Shown here: positions 13,760-48,999 of the stretch, piece by piece | How the letters are laid out: each line of letters begins with the position of its first letter | Numbering within the stretch: position 1 is the first letter of the stretch | Source of the DNA: Eledone cirrhosa | Lineage: Eukaryota | Assembly: GCA_964016885.1 (NCBI GenBank) | Contig: OZ024747.1 | Location: 31,000,001-31,064,000, forward strand | DNA length: 64,000 nucleotides | Reading direction: 5' to 3' | Translations under genes and position numbers: made by a program | The notes under the pieces: generated by a model | What the model was told of the DNA's origin: nothing | The model's input: only the letters and a program-made list of their open reading frames with translations | Databases searched by the model: none

Positions 13760-14280
13760 TTGGATTAACTCTTTTCCTCCCTCCTCCACTTTTCTCCATT
13801 TCTCTCTCCCTCCCCTCACTCATTCCCCCCTCTCTCTCAGCCCCCTTACCACTCTCTTTACACTGTTCTCACTGAGAATAGACGTGTTTCTCTTAGCTCT
13901 CTCACTTTTAATATGGCCCCTGGGCCTAAACCCAACTGCCTTGTTTTAACTTTGTCCTCTCTCTCTCCCCTCGGTTACTTACTTATATGTGCTATTGTCC
14001 TGTGTTTCTCTCCTCTAACGATATGTTTTTTTGTCTTTTTTTGTCTTTTTTTCTATCTTTCTCTCTCTTCGCAATCGCCTCTTTTATGTCTTTTCTTTCC
14101 CTCATAACTTGTTGATTATAAGTTATGGGTGCCCTAGGGATAGATGTTTTGTCTATAATGCACTGAAACATCCGTGACTTGTAGTAGACAACTGATGATG
14201 GGAAAATGTCTATCTCTTGTTTGTGTTACCTTGACTTTCTAACACTCATTATCACTAACCACACAGCCACGTCCCTCTCA
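13760..14280 (+). repeat. Pyrimidine-rich interspersed repeat carrying the permuted hammerhead-like motif (copy 1)
   Basis: Shares the GATRT-H-TTGTCT...GAAAYATC...AGACAA-CTGATGA motif with 19200-19770 and 43690-44430. Confidence 0.6.
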
Positions 14281-19199: not shown

Positions 19200-19770
19200 T
19201 GTGCTTACAACTACAGAGCCAATCCTATTCTCCTTATATCTTATCATGTCTCGCTGTGACCCGTCTTCTCTCTCCTTCTACCTACCTATTTTGTTGCTAT
19301 CTATTCTTCCCCCTCTTTCCTTCTCTGTATTTCTCCCTCTTTCTGGTAGCCACCTCATTGTTTCCATCGACTGAACCTCTAGCAGTTCTTTTCTCACTCC
19401 ACTCGGTAGGATCAGACGTGTCTTTTCGCTTGTCCGCACAATCTGGAACTTTTGTTCAGTAATCGGCGTGGACTTGAATTATCTTTCTTCAAATTGCTTG
19501 AACACTCTTTCATGTTTTTTAAATTTTTTTCCACTTTATTCGTTATTTTTTTCTTTTCTCCTTTTTTCTCTTTTGCCCTCTGTTATCCTATATTTTCTTT
19601 CCCTCCCTCCTTCGTTTTCCCAATAATGTACCTAGTTATTGAACGCACTCGGGGTAGATATCTTGCCTTTAATGCGTAGAAATATCCGAGACCCTCAGCA
19701 GACAACTGATGAGGAAAATTCCCATCCCCACCGTTCTTGCTTTCTTCTTATTCTTATTTTTAAGCATACA
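19200..19770 (+). repeat. Interspersed repeat with the permuted hammerhead-like motif (copy 2)
   Basis: Clearly homologous to the reverse complement of 43690-44205. Motif at 19657-19712. Confidence 0.8.
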
Positions 19771-23471: not shown

Positions 23472-23922
23472 CACATATATATATATACATATATAAATAT
23501 AAATACACACATAAATATATACACATATATATATATATATATACACATATATATATATACATATATAAATATATATATATATATACACATACATAATATA
23601 TACATATATACATGTATGTATATATATATAAAAACAAATAACGAAACGAAATTAAATTTCGTTTCGTTTGTAACTCACTTTTGTATGACTGACGCTTAAA
23701 CAATTAAGTTAAAAATGTACATCTACATATGCATACTGAAATACTAGTATCCATATGAATACACACACGTATACATATGTAGATGTACCAAGTCTTTCAC
23801 TGGTTACTTTACTGTGAGTATCCAGCTATTCTGTATGTAAACACACAGACAAACCGGTTTTTAGAGTCATACTGGTTTTTGAGGAAACACCTTTCCTCTA
23901 TTCTCCAGAAAGCCAGACAAGG

Positions 23923-23967
23923 AATATTGAACTAGTTTCGTTGTTGTTACAACTCATCAGCAATATT
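23923..23967 (-). ncRNA. Minimal type I hammerhead ribozyme
   Basis: AATATTG-CTGATGA-GTTGT AACA ACAAC-GAAA-CTAG-TT-CAATATT on the minus strand. Confidence 0.88.
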
Positions 23968-24116
23968 TACCTATCTACCGGCCTTTCTGGAGAATCGTAA
24001 AAGCACATATCGTTATATGCTTTTTCTATGAAAATTAGTAGTGGGCAGACTAATTTGCATAGAGTGTGAGTACGTACCGGTTCAACGGAGACGATAAAAA
24101 GGCCGGTAGATAGGTA

Positions 24117-24161
24117 AATATTGCTGATGAGTTGTAACAACAACGAAACTAGTTCAATATT
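24117..24161 (+). ncRNA. Minimal type I hammerhead ribozyme
   Basis: Helix I 7 bp, CUGAUGA, helix II 5 bp, GAAA, palindromic ACTAGT in place of helix III, GUU triplet. Confidence 0.9.
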
Positions 24162-24582
24162 CCTTGTCTGGCTTTCTGGAGAATAGAGGAAAGGTGTTTC
24201 CTCAAAAACCAGTATGACTCTAAAAACCGGTTTGTCTGTGTGTTTACATACAGAATAGCTGGATACTCACAGTAAAGTAACCGGTGAAAGACTTGGTACA
24301 TCTACATATGTATACGTGTGTGTATTCATATGCATACTAGTATTTCAGTATGCATATGTAGATGTACATTTTTAACTTAATTGTTTAAGCGTCAGTCATA
24401 CAAAAGTGAGTTACAAACGAAACGAAATTTAATTTCGTTTCGTTATTTGTTTTTATCGTCTCCGTTGAACCGGTACGTACTCACACTCTATGCAAATTAG
24501 TCTGCCCACTACTAATTTTCATAGAAAAAGCATATAACGATATGTGCTTTTACGATTCTCCAGAAAGGCCGGTAGATAGGTA

Positions 24583-24627
24583 AATATTGCTGATGAGTTG
24601 TAACAACAACGAAACTAGTTCAATATT
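24583..24627 (+). ncRNA. Minimal type I hammerhead ribozyme (tandem copy)
   Basis: Identical to 24117-24161 and 466 nt downstream. Confidence 0.9.
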
Positions 24628-24848
24628 CCTTGTCTGGCTTTCTGGAGAATAGAGGAAAGGTGTTTCCTCAAAAACCAGTATGACTCTAAAAACCGGTTTG
24701 TCTGTGTGTTTACATACAGAATAGCTGGATACTCACAGTAAAGTAACCAGTGAAAGACTTGGTACATCTACATATGTATACGTGTGTGTATTCATACGCA
24801 TACTAGTATTTCAGTATGCATATGTAGATGTACATTTTTAACTTAATT

Positions 24849-30967: not shown

Positions 30968-31935
30968 TCCCTTTTCTAGATATCTCGATATCTATCAATC
31001 ACTCCCACCGCACCCTCTATATTTCCATCTTCTATAAACCAATAGACTCCCACTCTTACCTCAACTTTACCTCCTCCCATCCAACCAACACCAAACACTC
31101 CATACCCTATTCCCAATTCCTTCGTTTTTGTTGGCTCTGTAGCCAGGACAACGATTTCGAAACCCATTACCTTCACATGGCTTCCCGCTTCATCCAGTGT
31201 GGATATCCCCCACCCTGATCCAAGTTGCTCTCACCCGCACCCGTGAAACTGACTGCACCACAGCACTCTCATCTTACCCTTGCCCTCCCAACACCCGTGT
31301 TCCTTTCCCTCTCACCTACCACTCCGGCAACATATCCTCCGTTCCTTCCCCCTCTCTTCTGACACTGCCACTTCTAGCTATTTCCCATACCCACCCATTA
31401 CTGCATTTAAGCATGCCCATAACCTCCGCAACCTCCTGGTATGCAGTTCCTTCTCATCCTCTCCTATGACTCCACCCAGCTCTCATACTTGTTCTTGTCC
31501 CCGCTGCAACACTTGTCCCTTTATTTCCACCCTCACCACTCTTACAGGCCCTAACGGGTCATTCTGTATCCGCCATTCCTTCACCTGCACATCCACCCAC
31601 ATTGTCTACACCTTCCAGTGTTCACTTTGCGGGGTCTTTATACATGCTGGACCTTTTTGCTGAGCATTTGAGGGACATACGACTCGGTTTGGACACTCCT
31701 GTCGCCCGTCATTTCTGTTCTCCTGGTCACTCTTCTTTACATATCTCAGTCCTGGGTGTCCTTTTACATCACGGATCACAGGTTCATGTACCACCCACCC
31801 GTCCCCTCAATCTAGCTTATTTCTCATTCTTTCTTCTGATGAAAGACTAGCGTCCGAAACGTTAAGAATCTCTTCCTGCTATATCAAGCGTTAACCTAAT
31901 ATTCCACATACTGTACCGATTGTGTTGTTATTTCT
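30968..31935 (+). mobile_element. Penelope-like element 3' fragment (RT thumb, Cys linker, GIY-YIG, terminal hammerhead)
   Basis: PFLDISIS, FYKPIDSHSYLNFTSSHP, SIPYSQFLR, NLRNLLV, CSCPRCNTC, FTCTSTHIVYTFQCSLCG, FAEHLRDIR and PVARHF. A Cys-rich linker of this kind is typical of Neptune-type PLEs. Confidence 0.88.
31831..31868 (+). ncRNA. Minimal hammerhead ribozyme at the PLE 3' end
   Basis: TTCTT-CTGATGA-AAGAC TAGC GTCC-GAAA-CG-TT-AAGAA, with palindromic AACGTT. Confidence 0.8.
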
Positions 31936-43433: not shown

Positions 43434-43687
43434 GACTCAATTTATTGCGTATTACAATTTTATCCCCGGTGAACAGTTCGAGGTGCGATCTATGTGTGGA
43501 TCGACCTGACTCTGGGTTCACAGGTTCCTCAGACACGTCTATTGATTTCGGAGCAGAAAAAGGATCTGGTCCGAAATCAATAGACATGTCTGAGGAACCT
43601 GTGAATCCAGAGTCAGGTCGATCCACACATAGATCGCACCTCGAGTTGTTCGCCGGGGAAACAATTGTAATATGCAATAAATTGAGT
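43434..43687. repeat. Foldback palindrome of about 250 bp containing a hammerhead
   Basis: 43434-43552 is the reverse complement of 43570-43687. Confidence 0.92.
43585..43674 (+). ncRNA. Hammerhead ribozyme with an extended, branched helix II
   Basis: CATGT-CTGAGGA-ACCTGTGAA...TTCGCCGGG-GAAA-CAATTG-TA-ATATG, with palindromic ACAATTGT and a GUA triplet. The mirror copy has a mutated GAAA. Confidence 0.72.
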
Positions 43688-43689
43688 AT

Positions 43690-44430
43690 TGGGAAAATGG
43701 AGGAGGAAGGGAAGGAAAATAAAAGGTAAAAAGGAAAAAAGGGAAGAAAAGAGAAAAACAGCGAAAAAAACAACAAACCGGAGAATGTGCGAGAAAATCC
43801 AAGTCCACATCGGTAACTGAACTTAAGTTCGAGAGTGTGTGGGTGAACGAAAAGACACGTCTGACCCCAGAGAGTGTAAGTGAGAAAAGGACTGCTAGAG
43901 GGTCAGGCAAGGGAAACAATGAGGTGGCTTGCAGAGGGAGAGTGTGTGAATGTGTGAGGGTAAAGGGGAGACAAAGAAAGAAGAGTAGATAGTAAAGAAA
44001 TAGGTAGGTAGAAGGAGAGAGAAAACGGGTCACAGCGAGACATGATAAGATATAAGGAGAATGGGATTGGCTGTGTAGTTGCTAGTTAAGGTAGGCTTAA
44101 AAACGAATGAGAATAAGAAAGCAACAACGGGGGCGGGGAGTTTTCCTCATCAGTTGTCTACTGTGGTCTTGGATATTTCAATGCTTTAAAGACAAAATAT
44201 CTACCTCCATAGCATGCAATAACTGGGTAAGTTATTGGGAAAACGGAGGAGGGAGGGAAGGAAAATAGAAGAGAAAAGGGAAAAAAGGGAAGAAAAGAGA
44301 AAAACAGTGAAAAAAACAACAAACCGGAGAATGTGCGAGCAACTTAAGGTAAGAAAATCCAAATCCACATCGGTAACTGAACTTAAGTTCAAGACTGTGT
44401 GGGTGAAAGAAAAGACACGTCTGACCCCGG
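43690..44430 (-). repeat. Partial tandem repeat (period about 560 bp) with the permuted hammerhead-like motif (copy 3)
   Basis: 44230-44428 duplicates 43686-43868. Motif at 44147-44201. Confidence 0.8.
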
Positions 44431-44775
44431 CGTGTGTGTCTCTGATCAAATCATCGGAATACTGTGTTTAAGGTCGAGTGATGCAATTTCGAGTGATTAG
44501 GGGCATTTAGATTCACCTGATCAATGAAACAATTGTTAATACTGTGAATAAAACCTTTTTTGTACAGCCGACCATGTTATTCTTCACTCTTTCACTATTA
44601 TTACTCCAAGAATAATCTGCATAAGTATTCTAGTAAACTCGCTACCTAACTAAGGAAACTTTATGTTGAGTCAAAAAATGCCATACGTTAAAACTATCCA
44701 TAGTACAGAGTACTGACAACCTCTAACTGGATTACCTAAAATGATAACATGTTATCCCATATATATATTTATATT

Positions 44776-45243: not shown

Positions 45244-46662
45244 TGCTTCTGTGTCTTTTATATCGGTAATCTAATTTATTCAGTCCTCAATGTTGTCATT
45301 GACTGACCAACGGTCAAAAATACAGATACAATATAGACACAAACACATATATATAGTTTATCAAAGTTCTTTCATTGCACATCTGCAATATCGTCAGTGG
45401 TGCTATTGTTTCCTCCCGTTGCATTGTATTTTCTACGCCATCTTCATTTAGTCTGTTTATATATTTATTTATTTGTTTATTGTATTTTGTCTGCTTTGCA
45501 CATGCGTTTGCGTGTGTGTATAGTGTTTTGTTTGATGTGTGTTCATGATTGGGTGACTGTGTATTGGTTAATGTATTCTAGCTTTACTAGTGTGTGTTTA
45601 TATGTGTTTGTTGTTATTGTGCTTGTGTATGTATATATTTATTTATTTATCTATTTATTTATTTATTTATTTATACTTCTCTTAGGTCAGTGTTGTTTGT
45701 TTGGGTGTTGTTGTTATTCCATTTATTTTTTCTGTTTAGTCTTGGCCTTCTTAGTTCTATTTCACTGGCCTCTCTGATTTGCCTATTTGCTGGGTCATTT
45801 CTATGTTTAGATATTATTCTAATTTCTATGTTGTCTATGTTACCGTCATGTTGTTGTCTGGCATGTTCGTATAGTACTGAACCGTTTTTTCGTCCTTTTA
45901 GTTTGCCCCCAGTGTTGGTCTATCCTTTCACCTATGCTATGAGCTGTCTCGCTTATGTATCTTGTTGTCATGTTTCTGCAAGTACCCTCTGTACATCTTA
46001 TGCTATAGACTACGTTTCTAGTTTTACAGTTTATCCGGGGGTTTACCTTACATATGATACATTTCCTATTAGTACAGTGGGTTTTCTTAAAAGGGTAGGT
46101 TTTGCTGATCAGGGATTTTATGGTGGTTCCTGGCTTTTCTACCACCTTAATCTTTAAGTGGGTCTTTCTCAGGGCCTTTCTACACTGGTTAGCTAATTTC
46201 CCTCCACGGGTAGCGTCCACAAACATGACACTCTGGTATCTCTGGTTGTCGTACCATGAGGTGGCTTTCCCTATCTTATGTCTAGCCCTATCTAAGCTAT
46301 TCCATAATTTGCTCCTGTATAATGGGCAAATTCCTTTCATGTCCAGTTCTATGAGGGTCTTATACTTCTCCGTGGCTCCTTTGTATACTCTGATTCTGTC
46401 TCTTTGGTTGTAGCCAGAGAACTGCATGCGGTTGATGAAGTGTTGGATGTGTCTTTCCATTTCTGTTGGGTCGCACATGCGGGACACATTCATCATCACT
46501 CGTACCAAGTCTGCGATCAGAATATTAAACTTAGCACTACTGGACATTGCTGAGTTTTTGAGTATCAGGTATTTGGAGGCCATGGGTTTAGCATAGTGTG
46601 AGTGGAGAATTTGGGCTCTCTCGTCTATAGTGTTAATCCAGAGTTCCGTGTCTAATATAGGT

Positions 46663-48427
46663 CTAAGATGTATGTGACAGTACAGAGGACCTCCTCAGCA
46701 GAATCAGTGAGTGCAACAAAAACAGGAACCTATCCAACTGCATAATAGGCAGCATGGATGTGGTATCACTGTACCTATCCATTAACATTGATTTTGCTGT
46801 GGAAATATGTGTGGATATGATCATTGAGAGTGAGGTGGAGTTCTGCAACGCCGACACAGATGAACTGGGCCTCCTACTTAGACTTACTTACGACACTGAC
46901 TACCTAGACAGCCATGACCTTAGACTTTTCTGCCCCTGTAGACCCATAAGAGGTAGACCCACCACCATAACATCAATGGCTAAAAAGGCTTCCATGGGAA
47001 GGTGGATTGGGTGGACCAAAGCTATACGGACCCCCCAAAACAATGATCAGGTAAGAAAAATGGTCGCACATGCAATAGGGGCTAGTATCAAAACTACCCT
47101 AAAGAGCCACATATTCAAGTTCAACGAGAAGATCTACACCCAAAATGAGGGAGCAGCCATTGGTGTCAGCATAGCTAGTGACGTCGCCAACCTTTTTATA
47201 GTATGGTGGGAAAGGAGACTTAAAGATCTCTTTAATGAGAGCTCCATAGGCCTCATCATGTACTCTCGTTACGTAGACGATATCAATATAGTTATAAGGA
47301 CATCCCCACAAGAGAGCACTAACAAGTTTGATTTAGAATGTAGCACAATGGAAAGCATCCAGCAGATAGCTAATTCCATACACCAGAGTATAACTGTAAC
47401 TATCGACTACCCTTCCAAACACCCTAACAATAGACTAACTGTATTAGACACGGAACTCTGGATTAACACTATAGATGAGAGAGCCCAAATTCTCCACTCA
47501 CACTATGCTAAACCCATGGCCTCCAAATACCTGATACTCAAAAACTCAACAATGTCCAGTAGTGCTAAGTTTAATATTCTGATCGCAGACTTGGTACGAG
47601 TGATGATGAACATGTCCCACATGTGCGACCCAACAGAAATGGAAAGACACATCAAACACTTCATCAACCGCATGCAGTTCTCTGGCTACAACCAAAGAGA
47701 CAGAATCAGAGTATACAAAGGAGCCACGGAGAAGTATAAGACCCTCATAGAACTGGACATGAAAGGAATTTGCCCATTATACAGGAGCAAATCATGGAAT
47801 AGCTTAGATAGGGCTAGACATAAGATAGGGAAAGCCACCTCATGGTACGACAACCAGAGATACCAGAGTGTCATATTTGTGGATGCTACCCCTGGAGGGA
47901 AATTAGCTAACCAGTGTAGAAAGGCCCTGAGAAAGACCCACTTAAAGATTAAGGTGGTAGAAAAGCCAGGAACCACCATAAAATCCCTGATCAGCAAAAC
48001 CTACCCTTTTAAGAAAACCGACTGTACCAATAGGAAATGTATCATATGTAAGGTAAACCCCCGGATAAACTGTAAAACTAGAAACGTAGTCTATAGCATA
48101 AGATGTACAGAGGGTACTTGCAGAAGCATGACAACAAGATACATAGGCGAGACAGCTCGTAGCATAGGTGAAAGGATAGACCAACACTGGGGGGAACTAA
48201 AAGGATGAAAAAACGGTTCAGTACTATACGAACATGCCAGACAACAACATGACGGTAACATAGACAACATAGAAATTAGAATAATATCTAAACATAGAAA
48301 TGACCCAGCAGATAGGCAAATCAGAGAGGCCAGTGAAATAGAACTAAGAAGGCCAAGACTAAACAGAAAAAATAAATGGAATAACAACAACACCCAAACA
48401 AACAACACTGACCTAAGAAGAGTATAA
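46663..48427 (+). pseudogene. PLE reverse transcriptase-GIY-YIG ORF, 5'-truncated, with one premature stop
   Basis: SMDVVSLY, QNEGAAIG, YSRYVDDI, LTVLDTELW, CTNRKCIIC and VVYSIRC...RYIGETARSIGERIDQH. Past the TGA at 48206 the same frame reads SVLYEHARQQH...DRQIREASEIELRRPRLNRK to TAA at 48425. Confidence 0.9.
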
Positions 48428-48689
48428 ATAAATAAATAAATAGATAAATAGATAAATATATACATACACAAGCACAATAACAACAAACACATATAAACAC
48501 ACACTAGTAAAGCTAGAATACATTAACCAATACACAGTCACCCAATCACGAACACACATCAAACAAAACACTATACACACACGCAAACGCATGTGCAAAG
48601 CAGACAAAATACAATAAACAAATAAATAAATATATAAACAGACTAAATAAAGATGGCGTAGAAAATACAATGCAACGGGAGGACACAAT

Positions 48690-48735
48690 AGCACCACTGA
48701 CGATGTTGCAGATGTGCAACGAAAGAACTTTGATA
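48690..48735 (+). ncRNA. Minimal hammerhead-like motif in the PLE 3' UTR (mirror copy at about 45357-45402)
   Basis: CTGACGA-TGTTGCA GATG TGCAAC-GAAA-GAAC-TT. Helix I pairing is weak. Confidence 0.55.
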
Positions 48736-48999
48736 AACTATATATATGTGTTTGTGTCTATATTGTATCTGTATTTTTGACCGTTGGTCAGTCATTGGCA
48801 ACATTGATTACATAAATTAGATTACCGATATAAAAGACACAGAAGCGAAAAGAGAAAACCAACCAAACAGTGAGTGTGTTCTGTTATTAATTCTGGCAAT
48901 ATTACACAAATATGACCCTCCTCAATTATAACTATATATATATCAAATGTAGAAAAGTAACACACGAGTTGATATATATAAAAACACATAGTAGAAAGT

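Follow-up and report, generated by a model that had tools for sequence, protein, structure and literature searches.

Within a stretch of 64,000 nucleotides (nt) of the Eledone cirrhosa genome (GCA_964016885.1, contig OZ024747.1, positions 31,000,001 to 31,064,000), hereafter called the window, three copies of a hammerhead-type ribozyme motif were identified in repeats: copy 1 (14089-14210), copy 2 (19608-19724) and copy 3 (44140-44244). The motif comprises six helices and a split stem II, and its cleavage-site block (S) is followed by the GAAA block (G) and the CUGAUGA block (C). It probably cuts the repeat RNA after nucleotide H17, most likely between two units. That cleavage occurs in some format is predicted with high confidence from the sequence comparisons described below; for the two-unit mode as such the overall confidence is moderate. 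The carriers are short non-coding repeats likely derived from Naiad elements, which belong to the Penelope-like elements (PLEs). More tentatively, and somewhat short of an even balance, it is proposed that Naiads and their derivatives across animals carry non-circular hammerheads, including a four-segment form with a split block C, that these are obligate two-unit ribozymes, and that the published types SGC and CSG may belong here too.

The motif of copy 3 is located on the minus strand (44244-44140), has a length of about 105 nt and is thus larger than earlier described. From 5′ to 3′, its first half consists of a P0 strand, the hairpin Ph, the strands a5 and b5, a stem III strand, H17 and a stem I strand. 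The second half continues with 4 nt, strand a3, GAA, a stem III strand, 4 nt, strand b3, 1 nt, a stem I strand, CUGAUGA and the second P0 strand. The parts were assigned as follows:

44238..44244, minus strand: 5′ strand of P0, which closes the whole motif by pairing directly 3′ of CUGAUGA; 7 base pairs (bp) in copy 3
44217..44237, minus strand: hairpin Ph, 8 bp with a 5-nt loop
44211..44215, minus strand: a5, the displaced 5′ strand of stem II, whose partner is 44185-44181
44203..44210, minus strand: b5, the 5′ strand of Pb; this helix caps stems I and II and is decayed in copy 3, where 2 bp are left
44190..44201, minus strand: block S, with the 3′ strand of stem III (44201-44197), H17 (U at 44196) and the 3′ strand of stem I (44195-44190)
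44172..44185, minus strand: block G, with the 3′ strand of stem II (44185-44181), N11.1 (44180), the GAA core and the 5′ strand of stem III (44176-44172)
44161..44166, minus strand: b3, the 3′ strand of Pb, decayed in copy 3
44147..44159, minus strand: shortened block C (AGACAA-CTGATGA), which consists of the 5′ strand of stem I and CUGAUGA and contains no stem II strand
44140..44146, minus strand: 3′ strand of P0, paired with 44238..44244

The block order of copy 3, S-G-C, is the reverse of the cyclic block order found in types I-III. Its stem I (6 bp) and its stem III (5 bp) contain no mismatches, and GAAATATC is located at 44179-44172 of the minus strand, 10 nt after the 3′ strand of stem I and 12 nt before AGACAA-CTGATGA. 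Cleavage is predicted 3′ of H17 (44196). At A9/N10.1, Ph and P0 would meet stem II and the core in a four-way junction. Copy 3 reached a six-helix score of 33, and none of 150 shuffles scored as high (mean 13.2, maximum 18.5). The same was observed when the core was kept fixed and the rest was shuffled, as none of 150 shuffles reached the score, neither for copy 3 nor for five other copies. An Rfam scan of the window gave no match across 44147-44201 up to an E-value of 5, the HH9-like matches being located elsewhere. Within 130 nt of the core of copy 3, S-G-C was the only order that fitted, in agreement with the preliminary description of this copy, which had found no conventional hammerhead in the unit. 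In the controls of this block-order descriptor, three of four canonical hammerheads fitted C-G-S and the fourth fitted none.

The six helices were examined in two alignments of copies from the source genome (3.0 Gb). For alignment A2, 27 rows in which the blocks are equally spaced were picked by hand from families A, A2, B, B2, and D. For alignment A1, 7 candidates with microsatellite intrusions and 30 near-duplicates were removed from 112, and 20 truncated or chance matches from the remaining 75, leaving 55 rows, in which those of the C families are shifted by 2 columns at block S. In A2, 87.7% of the cells are paired, compared to 28-48% when slid, and 121 double-change cells were counted versus 39 in shuffles. 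Both sides are changed in 21 of the 34 pairs, and such pairs occur in every one of the six helices. In A1, 79.8% of the cells are paired, with 166 double-change cells versus 59 in shuffles. Broken down by helix, the share of paired cells in A2 is 83% for P0 (3 of 4 pairs double-changed), 82% for Ph (4 of 7), 79% for stem II formed by a5 and a3 (4 of 6) and 90% for Pb (5 of 6), and reaches 97% in stem III and 96% in stem I. The conventional helix II columns (10.x:11.x) are paired in 43% of the cells, which equals the shuffles; the single G-U pair formerly suggested as helix II is therefore not conserved. Since the upstream partner of a3 covaries and 10.x:11.x does not, stem II is present, with its 5′ strand displaced to the front of the molecule.

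The commonest letters of ten subfamilies form standard pairs at 50 of 50 stem III positions and 58 of 60 stem I positions, with several pair types. By script, the upstream partner of a3 comprises 5-7 bp in eight of the ten subfamilies and 3 bp in two; for B2 the register chosen by the script differs from that used in helix scoring. In C1, C3, C4, and E, stem II most often starts with a G paired to C11.1, as this stem usually does. The core elements CUGANGA, GAAA and UH are present, though partly fixed by the search patterns, and the invariance of GAAA in A1 and A2 is likewise in part due to selection. C3-G8 is invariant in families A-E, where the patterns fixed it, and a U3-A8 variant occurs in family G. 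H17 is a G in 1 of 98 copies.

A genome search with stem III and the core fixed and stem I left free gave 1,542 matches versus 1 in the reversed control, and revealed a second family whose stem I shows three double changes. Further patterns matched 478 versus 4, 79 versus 2 and 243 versus 0 times, and all accepted patterns together gave about 2,300 genomic matches versus 7 reversed ones. One loose S-G-C pattern matched 1,313 times versus 47 reversed; most rows listed for it belong to family F, which was rejected because it carries a canonical type I hammerhead. A covariance model, run on the window alone, returned the three known copies and one weak extra match (E-value 0.13). S-G-C was the best order within 130 nt for eight of nine representatives of families A-E, the ninth (copy 2) fitting none. 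According to BLAST, families A, B, and D have only the motif in common and E matches none of them, whereas the C families and D also share flanks. Contigs from four runs (run kind unrecorded) contained family B-like sequence whose substitutions give three complementary pairs in Pb and stem III; these substitutions are unphased and identical to those of known subfamilies, and were given little weight.

With regard to the hammerhead class, stems I and III flank the predicted cleavage site and covary, and the tertiary pair C3-G8 is found as well (family G). Stem II is not built from N10.x and N11.x, as an upstream strand pairs with 11.x, and the order differs from the cyclic C-G-S of types I, II, and III. 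The closest relatives are the type SGC hammerheads, which were validated in vitro and are known from metatranscriptomes, none of them from the genome of a known organism (Eckert et al., 2023, PMC10085705). They share the S-G-C order, the core letters, the predicted site, a helix that caps stems I and II on their other sides, and a short link between the 3′ strands of stems I and II (typically 3 nt, compared to 4 nt here). However, in those RNAs CUGAnGA is followed by the stem II 5′ strand, and block C was assumed to be unbreakable, whereas here this strand lies at the 5′ end. In addition, the present copies have the extra helices P0 and Ph at A9/N10.1, both strands of their stem III are connected to the capping helix, and they are located in animal chromosomes. 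They were not assigned as plain members of type SGC because block C is interrupted, with the stem I strand and CUGAnGA separated from the stem II strand. The permuted arrangement stated in the preliminary description is thus correct as to the S-G-C order, but the order itself had already been published (PMC10085705); what is new here is the split block C and the setting in animal genomes.

Type CSG, which comprises two soil-metagenome sequences in the consulted part of the same source, is also non-circular, with a helix capping stems I and II and a very short link to stem III; its block order is different and its block C intact, and it is not the form of the window copies. PLE hammerheads, as far as the consulted parts of their descriptions go, likewise lie near the 3′ end of the element, include the U3-A8 core variant (PMC4209133) and were proposed to need two copies for activity. 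In contrast to the present motif, they show the circular type I order and form dimers via a palindromic helix III, whereas loop and junction would be joined here via helices I and II. Non-LTR retrozymes (PMC7229834; bioRxiv 10.64898/2026.07.22.740005; both consulted in part) are similar in being non-coding tandem units of a few hundred bases with one ribozyme each and a proposed origin from PLEs. They are defined by type I hammerheads, whereas the units described here, found as genomic copies, have about 500-560 nt and carry the scrambled form. The literature searched, which covered few subscription journals, contained no report of a split block C, or of hammerheads with a non-circular order in Naiads, PLEs or animal genomes, and no split form is shown in the consulted part of Perreault 2011 on core variants. 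The SGC descriptor and alignments in the Eckert supplement, which was covered in part, may bear on the novelty of the split form.

The repeats in the window that carry the motif are the following:

43672..44437, minus strand: partial tandem of family A, non-coding and retrozyme-like, with a period of about 560 and a unit end near 44092 (self-BLAST; matches to 29 other loci)
19208..19769, plus strand: one family A unit ending in (TA)n, with copy 2 of the motif (19608-19724), in which stem I is broken by one change
14089..14210, plus strand: copy 1, a motif of subfamily D with all six helices and compensatory changes in stems III and II

No coding frame was seen in the window unit. The motif lies 50-100 nt from the 3′ end, which adjoins (TA)n. 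Within 150 nt past the last motif of an array, (TA)4 was found in 23 of 34 cases in family A, 24 of 26 in B, 19 of 24 in C and 3 of 4 in D, altogether 69 of 88, compared to 0 of 15 in family E and a background of 301 of 2000. Genomic copies retain the whole motif at their 3′ end, and the 5′ ends of the arrays are scattered. In family B, the arrays hold up to 3 motifs at a period of about 496, and an identity of about 96-99% indicates that the family is young. At L066:4190-4400, a single contig (489 nt, depth 2.2, run kind unrecorded) continues round the family B unit, as either a collapsed tandem or a circle would. The family A copy in the window is flanked by a 253-nt palindrome with CTGAGGA in both arms (43435-43687) and by an abundant 300-nt repeat (44432-44760; 3,370 first-look candidates), often with a 30-nt inverted tail; the repeat at 44461-44760 is separate from the family A unit.

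Naiads were described as elements without canonical hammerheads, with a preference for (TA)n and with an occasional unexplained core or half core ("HHR_core," "HHR_half_core") (Craig et al., 2021, PMC8557442). Of this source, the last 280-350 nt of 48 of the 54 consensus entries, the core-word matches and one supplement part in full were inspected by eye. The resulting counts are not a census, as other entries may hold a motif beyond these portions. The six-helix split form was recognized in eight consensus sequences, Bfor, Amil, Aacu, Anas, Plae, EuTe, Obim, and Ovul, whose hosts are a ctenophore, three corals, an acanthocephalan, a clam shrimp and two octopuses; in Naiad_Bfor, stem I has only 2 bp. 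A clean type CSG form with the capping helix was seen in seven nematode entries (Nbra 1-3, Hcon, Hpol, Asuum, and one Pristionchus entry). CSG-1 and CSG-2 have the same architecture as these nematode motifs, judged from the consulted part of the PMC10085705 supplement, and may therefore come from Naiads of soil animals. In several bivalve and hemichordate Naiad entries (supplement S5), another conserved 3′ motif without CUGAnGA is present.

The window repeats resemble the Naiad clade in the (TA)n target bias, the partial tandems with inverted copies, the optional tail and the location of the motif, which in Naiads is the 3′ untranslated region (UTR). The (TA)n bias and the partial tandems, which resemble the pseudo-long terminal repeats (pLTRs) of PLEs, fit Naiads, though they are not unique to them. 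Unlike Naiads, the window copies are non-coding and lack the N-terminal GIY-YIG domain, the CxC and DKA motifs and the reverse transcriptase (RT) open reading frame (ORF); remnants with the DKA motif, old and broken, are found elsewhere in the genome. Downstream of Naiad RT remnants, the S-G-C motif occurs in the 3′ UTR as family G, at 11 of 39 and 5 of 20 remnant loci, and in L344 a standard core lies 1,062 nt beyond the RT match. Positions 3 and 8 of family G, counted by eye among the 100 matches listed, are C-G in 14, U-A in 72, C-A in 9 and U-G in 5, so that 86 of the 100 carry C-G or U-A (Fisher p 1e-7, with copies that are not independent). A script applied to 30 loci gave C-G 7, U-A 20, C-A 2 and U-G 1. 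The consulted part of PMC4209133 describes U3-A8 as a core covariation of PLE hammerheads. The architecture and the Ph loop of the window motif are like those of Naiad_Ovul by eye; family G is tied to RT remnants, and families A-E have no such direct link. A satellite of about 40 repeats of 75 nt, composed of the G and C blocks of family G without block S, was observed in L316 (G000:C1:432075382-432078415).

A 5.2-kb repeat with an RT-GIY ORF near a motif copy was considered as a partner and rejected: the nuclease of this ORF is C-terminal, a canonical hammerhead of its own is present, and microsatellites lie in between. A search with PF01541 gave 150 scored matches, and in the top 20 loci and 20 further stretches all readable ORFs belong to elements with a C-terminal nuclease. 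The exact DKA-motif pattern had 0 matches in the genome, and a second motif pattern had 4, one of which is a Naiad remnant.

In the proposed mechanism, each unit would first fold without pseudoknots: P0 would close a junction that carries Ph, the free strand a5, the long hairpin of Pb and stem III, and, joined to CUGAUGA, the free strand of stem I. The 20-nt loop of this hairpin would bear the cleavage site, the 3′ strands of stems I and II, and GAA. Helices I and II (5-7 bp each) would then link loop and junction and form the core, with Pb capping both stems in the manner of the "I" helix of type SGC. The apical loop of one unit would dock on the basal junction of another, the neighbor being provided by tandem transcripts. 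Cleavage of the tandem transcripts would yield unit-length RNAs; these may become circular and be copied into the genome again in the form of tandem arrays, a route proposed for retrozymes. The nested fold of P0, Ph, Pb and stem III is the predicted minimum for L006, L086 and, with one choice of ends, L033.

The proposal that the neighbor would supply half of the ribozyme is based on the dimensions of the hairpin. Pb has 6-9 bp and is tied to stem III by 0-3 nt on the shorter side, the two links being 0/3 nt in L086 and L112, 1/4 nt in L006 and 1/0 nt in Naiad_EuTe. Stem III and Pb are therefore nearly one continuous helix, and the loop and junction of the same unit probably cannot meet. [quoted passage not shown] To fold in cis, the RNA would have to double back completely at a small bulge, which docking between two units does not require. 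The nematode Naiad and published CSG forms pose the same geometry, and two-copy, dimer-dependent hammerheads are described for PLEs in the part of that literature consulted.

A single unit could nevertheless fold on itself into a double pseudoknot and cleave in cis if the internal loop between stem III and Pb turned sharply or if Pb or stem III partly opened. Covariation is blind to cis versus trans, published SGC and CSG RNAs cut during transcription (PMC10085705), and some members have longer links (3/6 nt in L064; about 5/55 nt, together with a 15-bp Pb, in Naiad_Bfor). Since one-strand links of 0-1 nt in L086, L112, and Naiad_EuTe give little room for the reversal, a geometric problem that Eckert et al. 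also raised for some SGC RNAs (PMC10085705), this cis fold is regarded as possible but rather unlikely. It is still less probable that the fold is kept as a signal for protein binding or priming at the 3′ end of the element and cleaves poorly or not at all in vivo, with a regulatory or vestigial core. Such a role would agree with the low in vitro activity of minimal PLE hammerheads in the literature consulted in part, with the retention of the whole motif at the 3′ ends of genomic copies whose arrays have scattered 5′ ends, and with an open junction at A9/N10.1, which could weaken the core; the covariation of C3-G8 with U3-A8 and the near absence of G at H17 are, however, constraints expected of catalysis. 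The S-G-C reading could also mislead, as loose patterns do, since the canonical hammerhead of family F matched such a pattern; the true G and S blocks of a conventional, circularly permuted hammerhead would then lie elsewhere in the unit or in the next one. As tandem repetition leaves the cyclic order unchanged and S-G-C is the best order for nearly all representatives, this is disfavored to the point of being very improbable. Chance complementarity passed down in a repeat family, for which the relatedness of the copies could be cited, is equally implausible: different pair types occur in families that share nothing else, the same architecture is found in several animal phyla, and the covariation across families refutes it.

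Several points weigh against cleavage by two Naiad-derived units as proposed here. The two-unit step was derived from helix lengths rather than from a 3D model, and CSG RNAs with a 1-nt link were cleaved during transcription and treated as cis (PMC10085705, consulted in part). Competing minimum-energy folds are predicted for copy 1, copy 3, L118, and, with slightly different ends, L033. An anole PLE inserted in vitro without the need of hammerhead cleavage, which also favors the signal role, and no RNA reads ended at the site, according to the consulted part of PMC11167929. Because the copies were gathered with patterns that fix the core, its invariance is partly built in; because they are related, cell counts overstate the number of independent events, and the measure of further pair types is no higher than in shuffles (A1 and A2). 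N11.1 has no a5 pairing in 16 of 23 A2 rows. In family G, the helices recognized are stems I and III. No intact Naiad ORF was found in the genome with motif patterns, the PF01541 search or at the remnant loci, and no coding element was found joined to any unit of families A-E, the youth of family B notwithstanding; the Naiad origin of family A therefore rests on its (TA)n ends, its position and the architecture that it shares with Naiads.

Copy 3 itself is probably weak or dead. Its letters and spacings on the minus strand were confirmed by re-reading, as were the perfect helices I and III, the partial tandem of about 560 (44214-44437 matches 43672-43877 at 85% in self-BLAST) and the position near the unit end, which in other copies corresponds to about 44092, 55 nt beyond the core. 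The central proposal of the preliminary description, a non-circularly permuted hammerhead-type motif close to the 3′ end of a PLE-type repeat, is thus supported. On the other hand, the 10 nt regarded as a free crossover linker consist of 4 nt and the 3′ strand of stem II, and copy 3 is not the best copy for testing: Pb is reduced to 2 bp, although P0, Ph, stem I, stem II (5 bp) and stem III are retained; in the minimum-energy fold the cleavage site is hidden, and U17 is a minority variant present in 2 of 28 family A copies (6 of 6 in C1). The transcript proposed for the test (44215-44125) would moreover miss two conserved helices (44244-44217). Better substrates are the arrays of family B, L086, and L006.

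Other hammerhead-like sites and repeats were observed in the window. Three HH9-like canonical type I hammerheads of 38.6 bits each, at 23907-23978 (minus strand), 24106-24177 (plus) and 24572-24643 (plus), lie within a near-perfect inverted and tandem repeat, and the copy at 24124 fits C-G-S. CUGANGA at 31836 (plus), 25272 (minus) and 36376 (plus) resembles the minimal hammerheads of PLEs; 31836 fits C-G-S with a palindromic stem III, and 25272 fitted no order in the descriptor. The region 45287-48807 shows long inverted repeats (96-98%), a 513-amino acid frame with a weak match to RVT_1 (E-value 5e-5) and CTGACGA in each terminal arm, and is probably a PLE with inverted pLTRs. Elsewhere in the genome, family F (L141-L170; G000:C1:170798069-170802287) is an abundant tandem repeat with a period of about 520 and arrays of up to 9 units seen; its type I hammerhead has a long stem II insert and a palindromic stem III, and the family is ordinary and retrozyme-like.

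Non-circular hammerhead motifs are thus present in over a thousand chromosomal copies in this genome and, by eye, in 15 published Naiad consensus sequences among the portions covered. The split form is a topology beyond the six-order scheme. Since standard descriptors and Rfam miss it, ribozyme counts in animal genomes may be too low. The finding addresses the stated puzzle that Naiads lack canonical hammerheads yet contain unexplained half cores, and a scrambled two-unit form would explain why they were thought to be free of hammerheads. If the proposed mechanism is true, one copy gives the cleavage loop and another the catalytic strand, and the RNA would be cut only when tandem or paired. 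The repeats offer many natural sequences with which to test whether a ribozyme can be built as a sensor of copy number, and RNA engineering could draw on them for a natural design that acts in trans.
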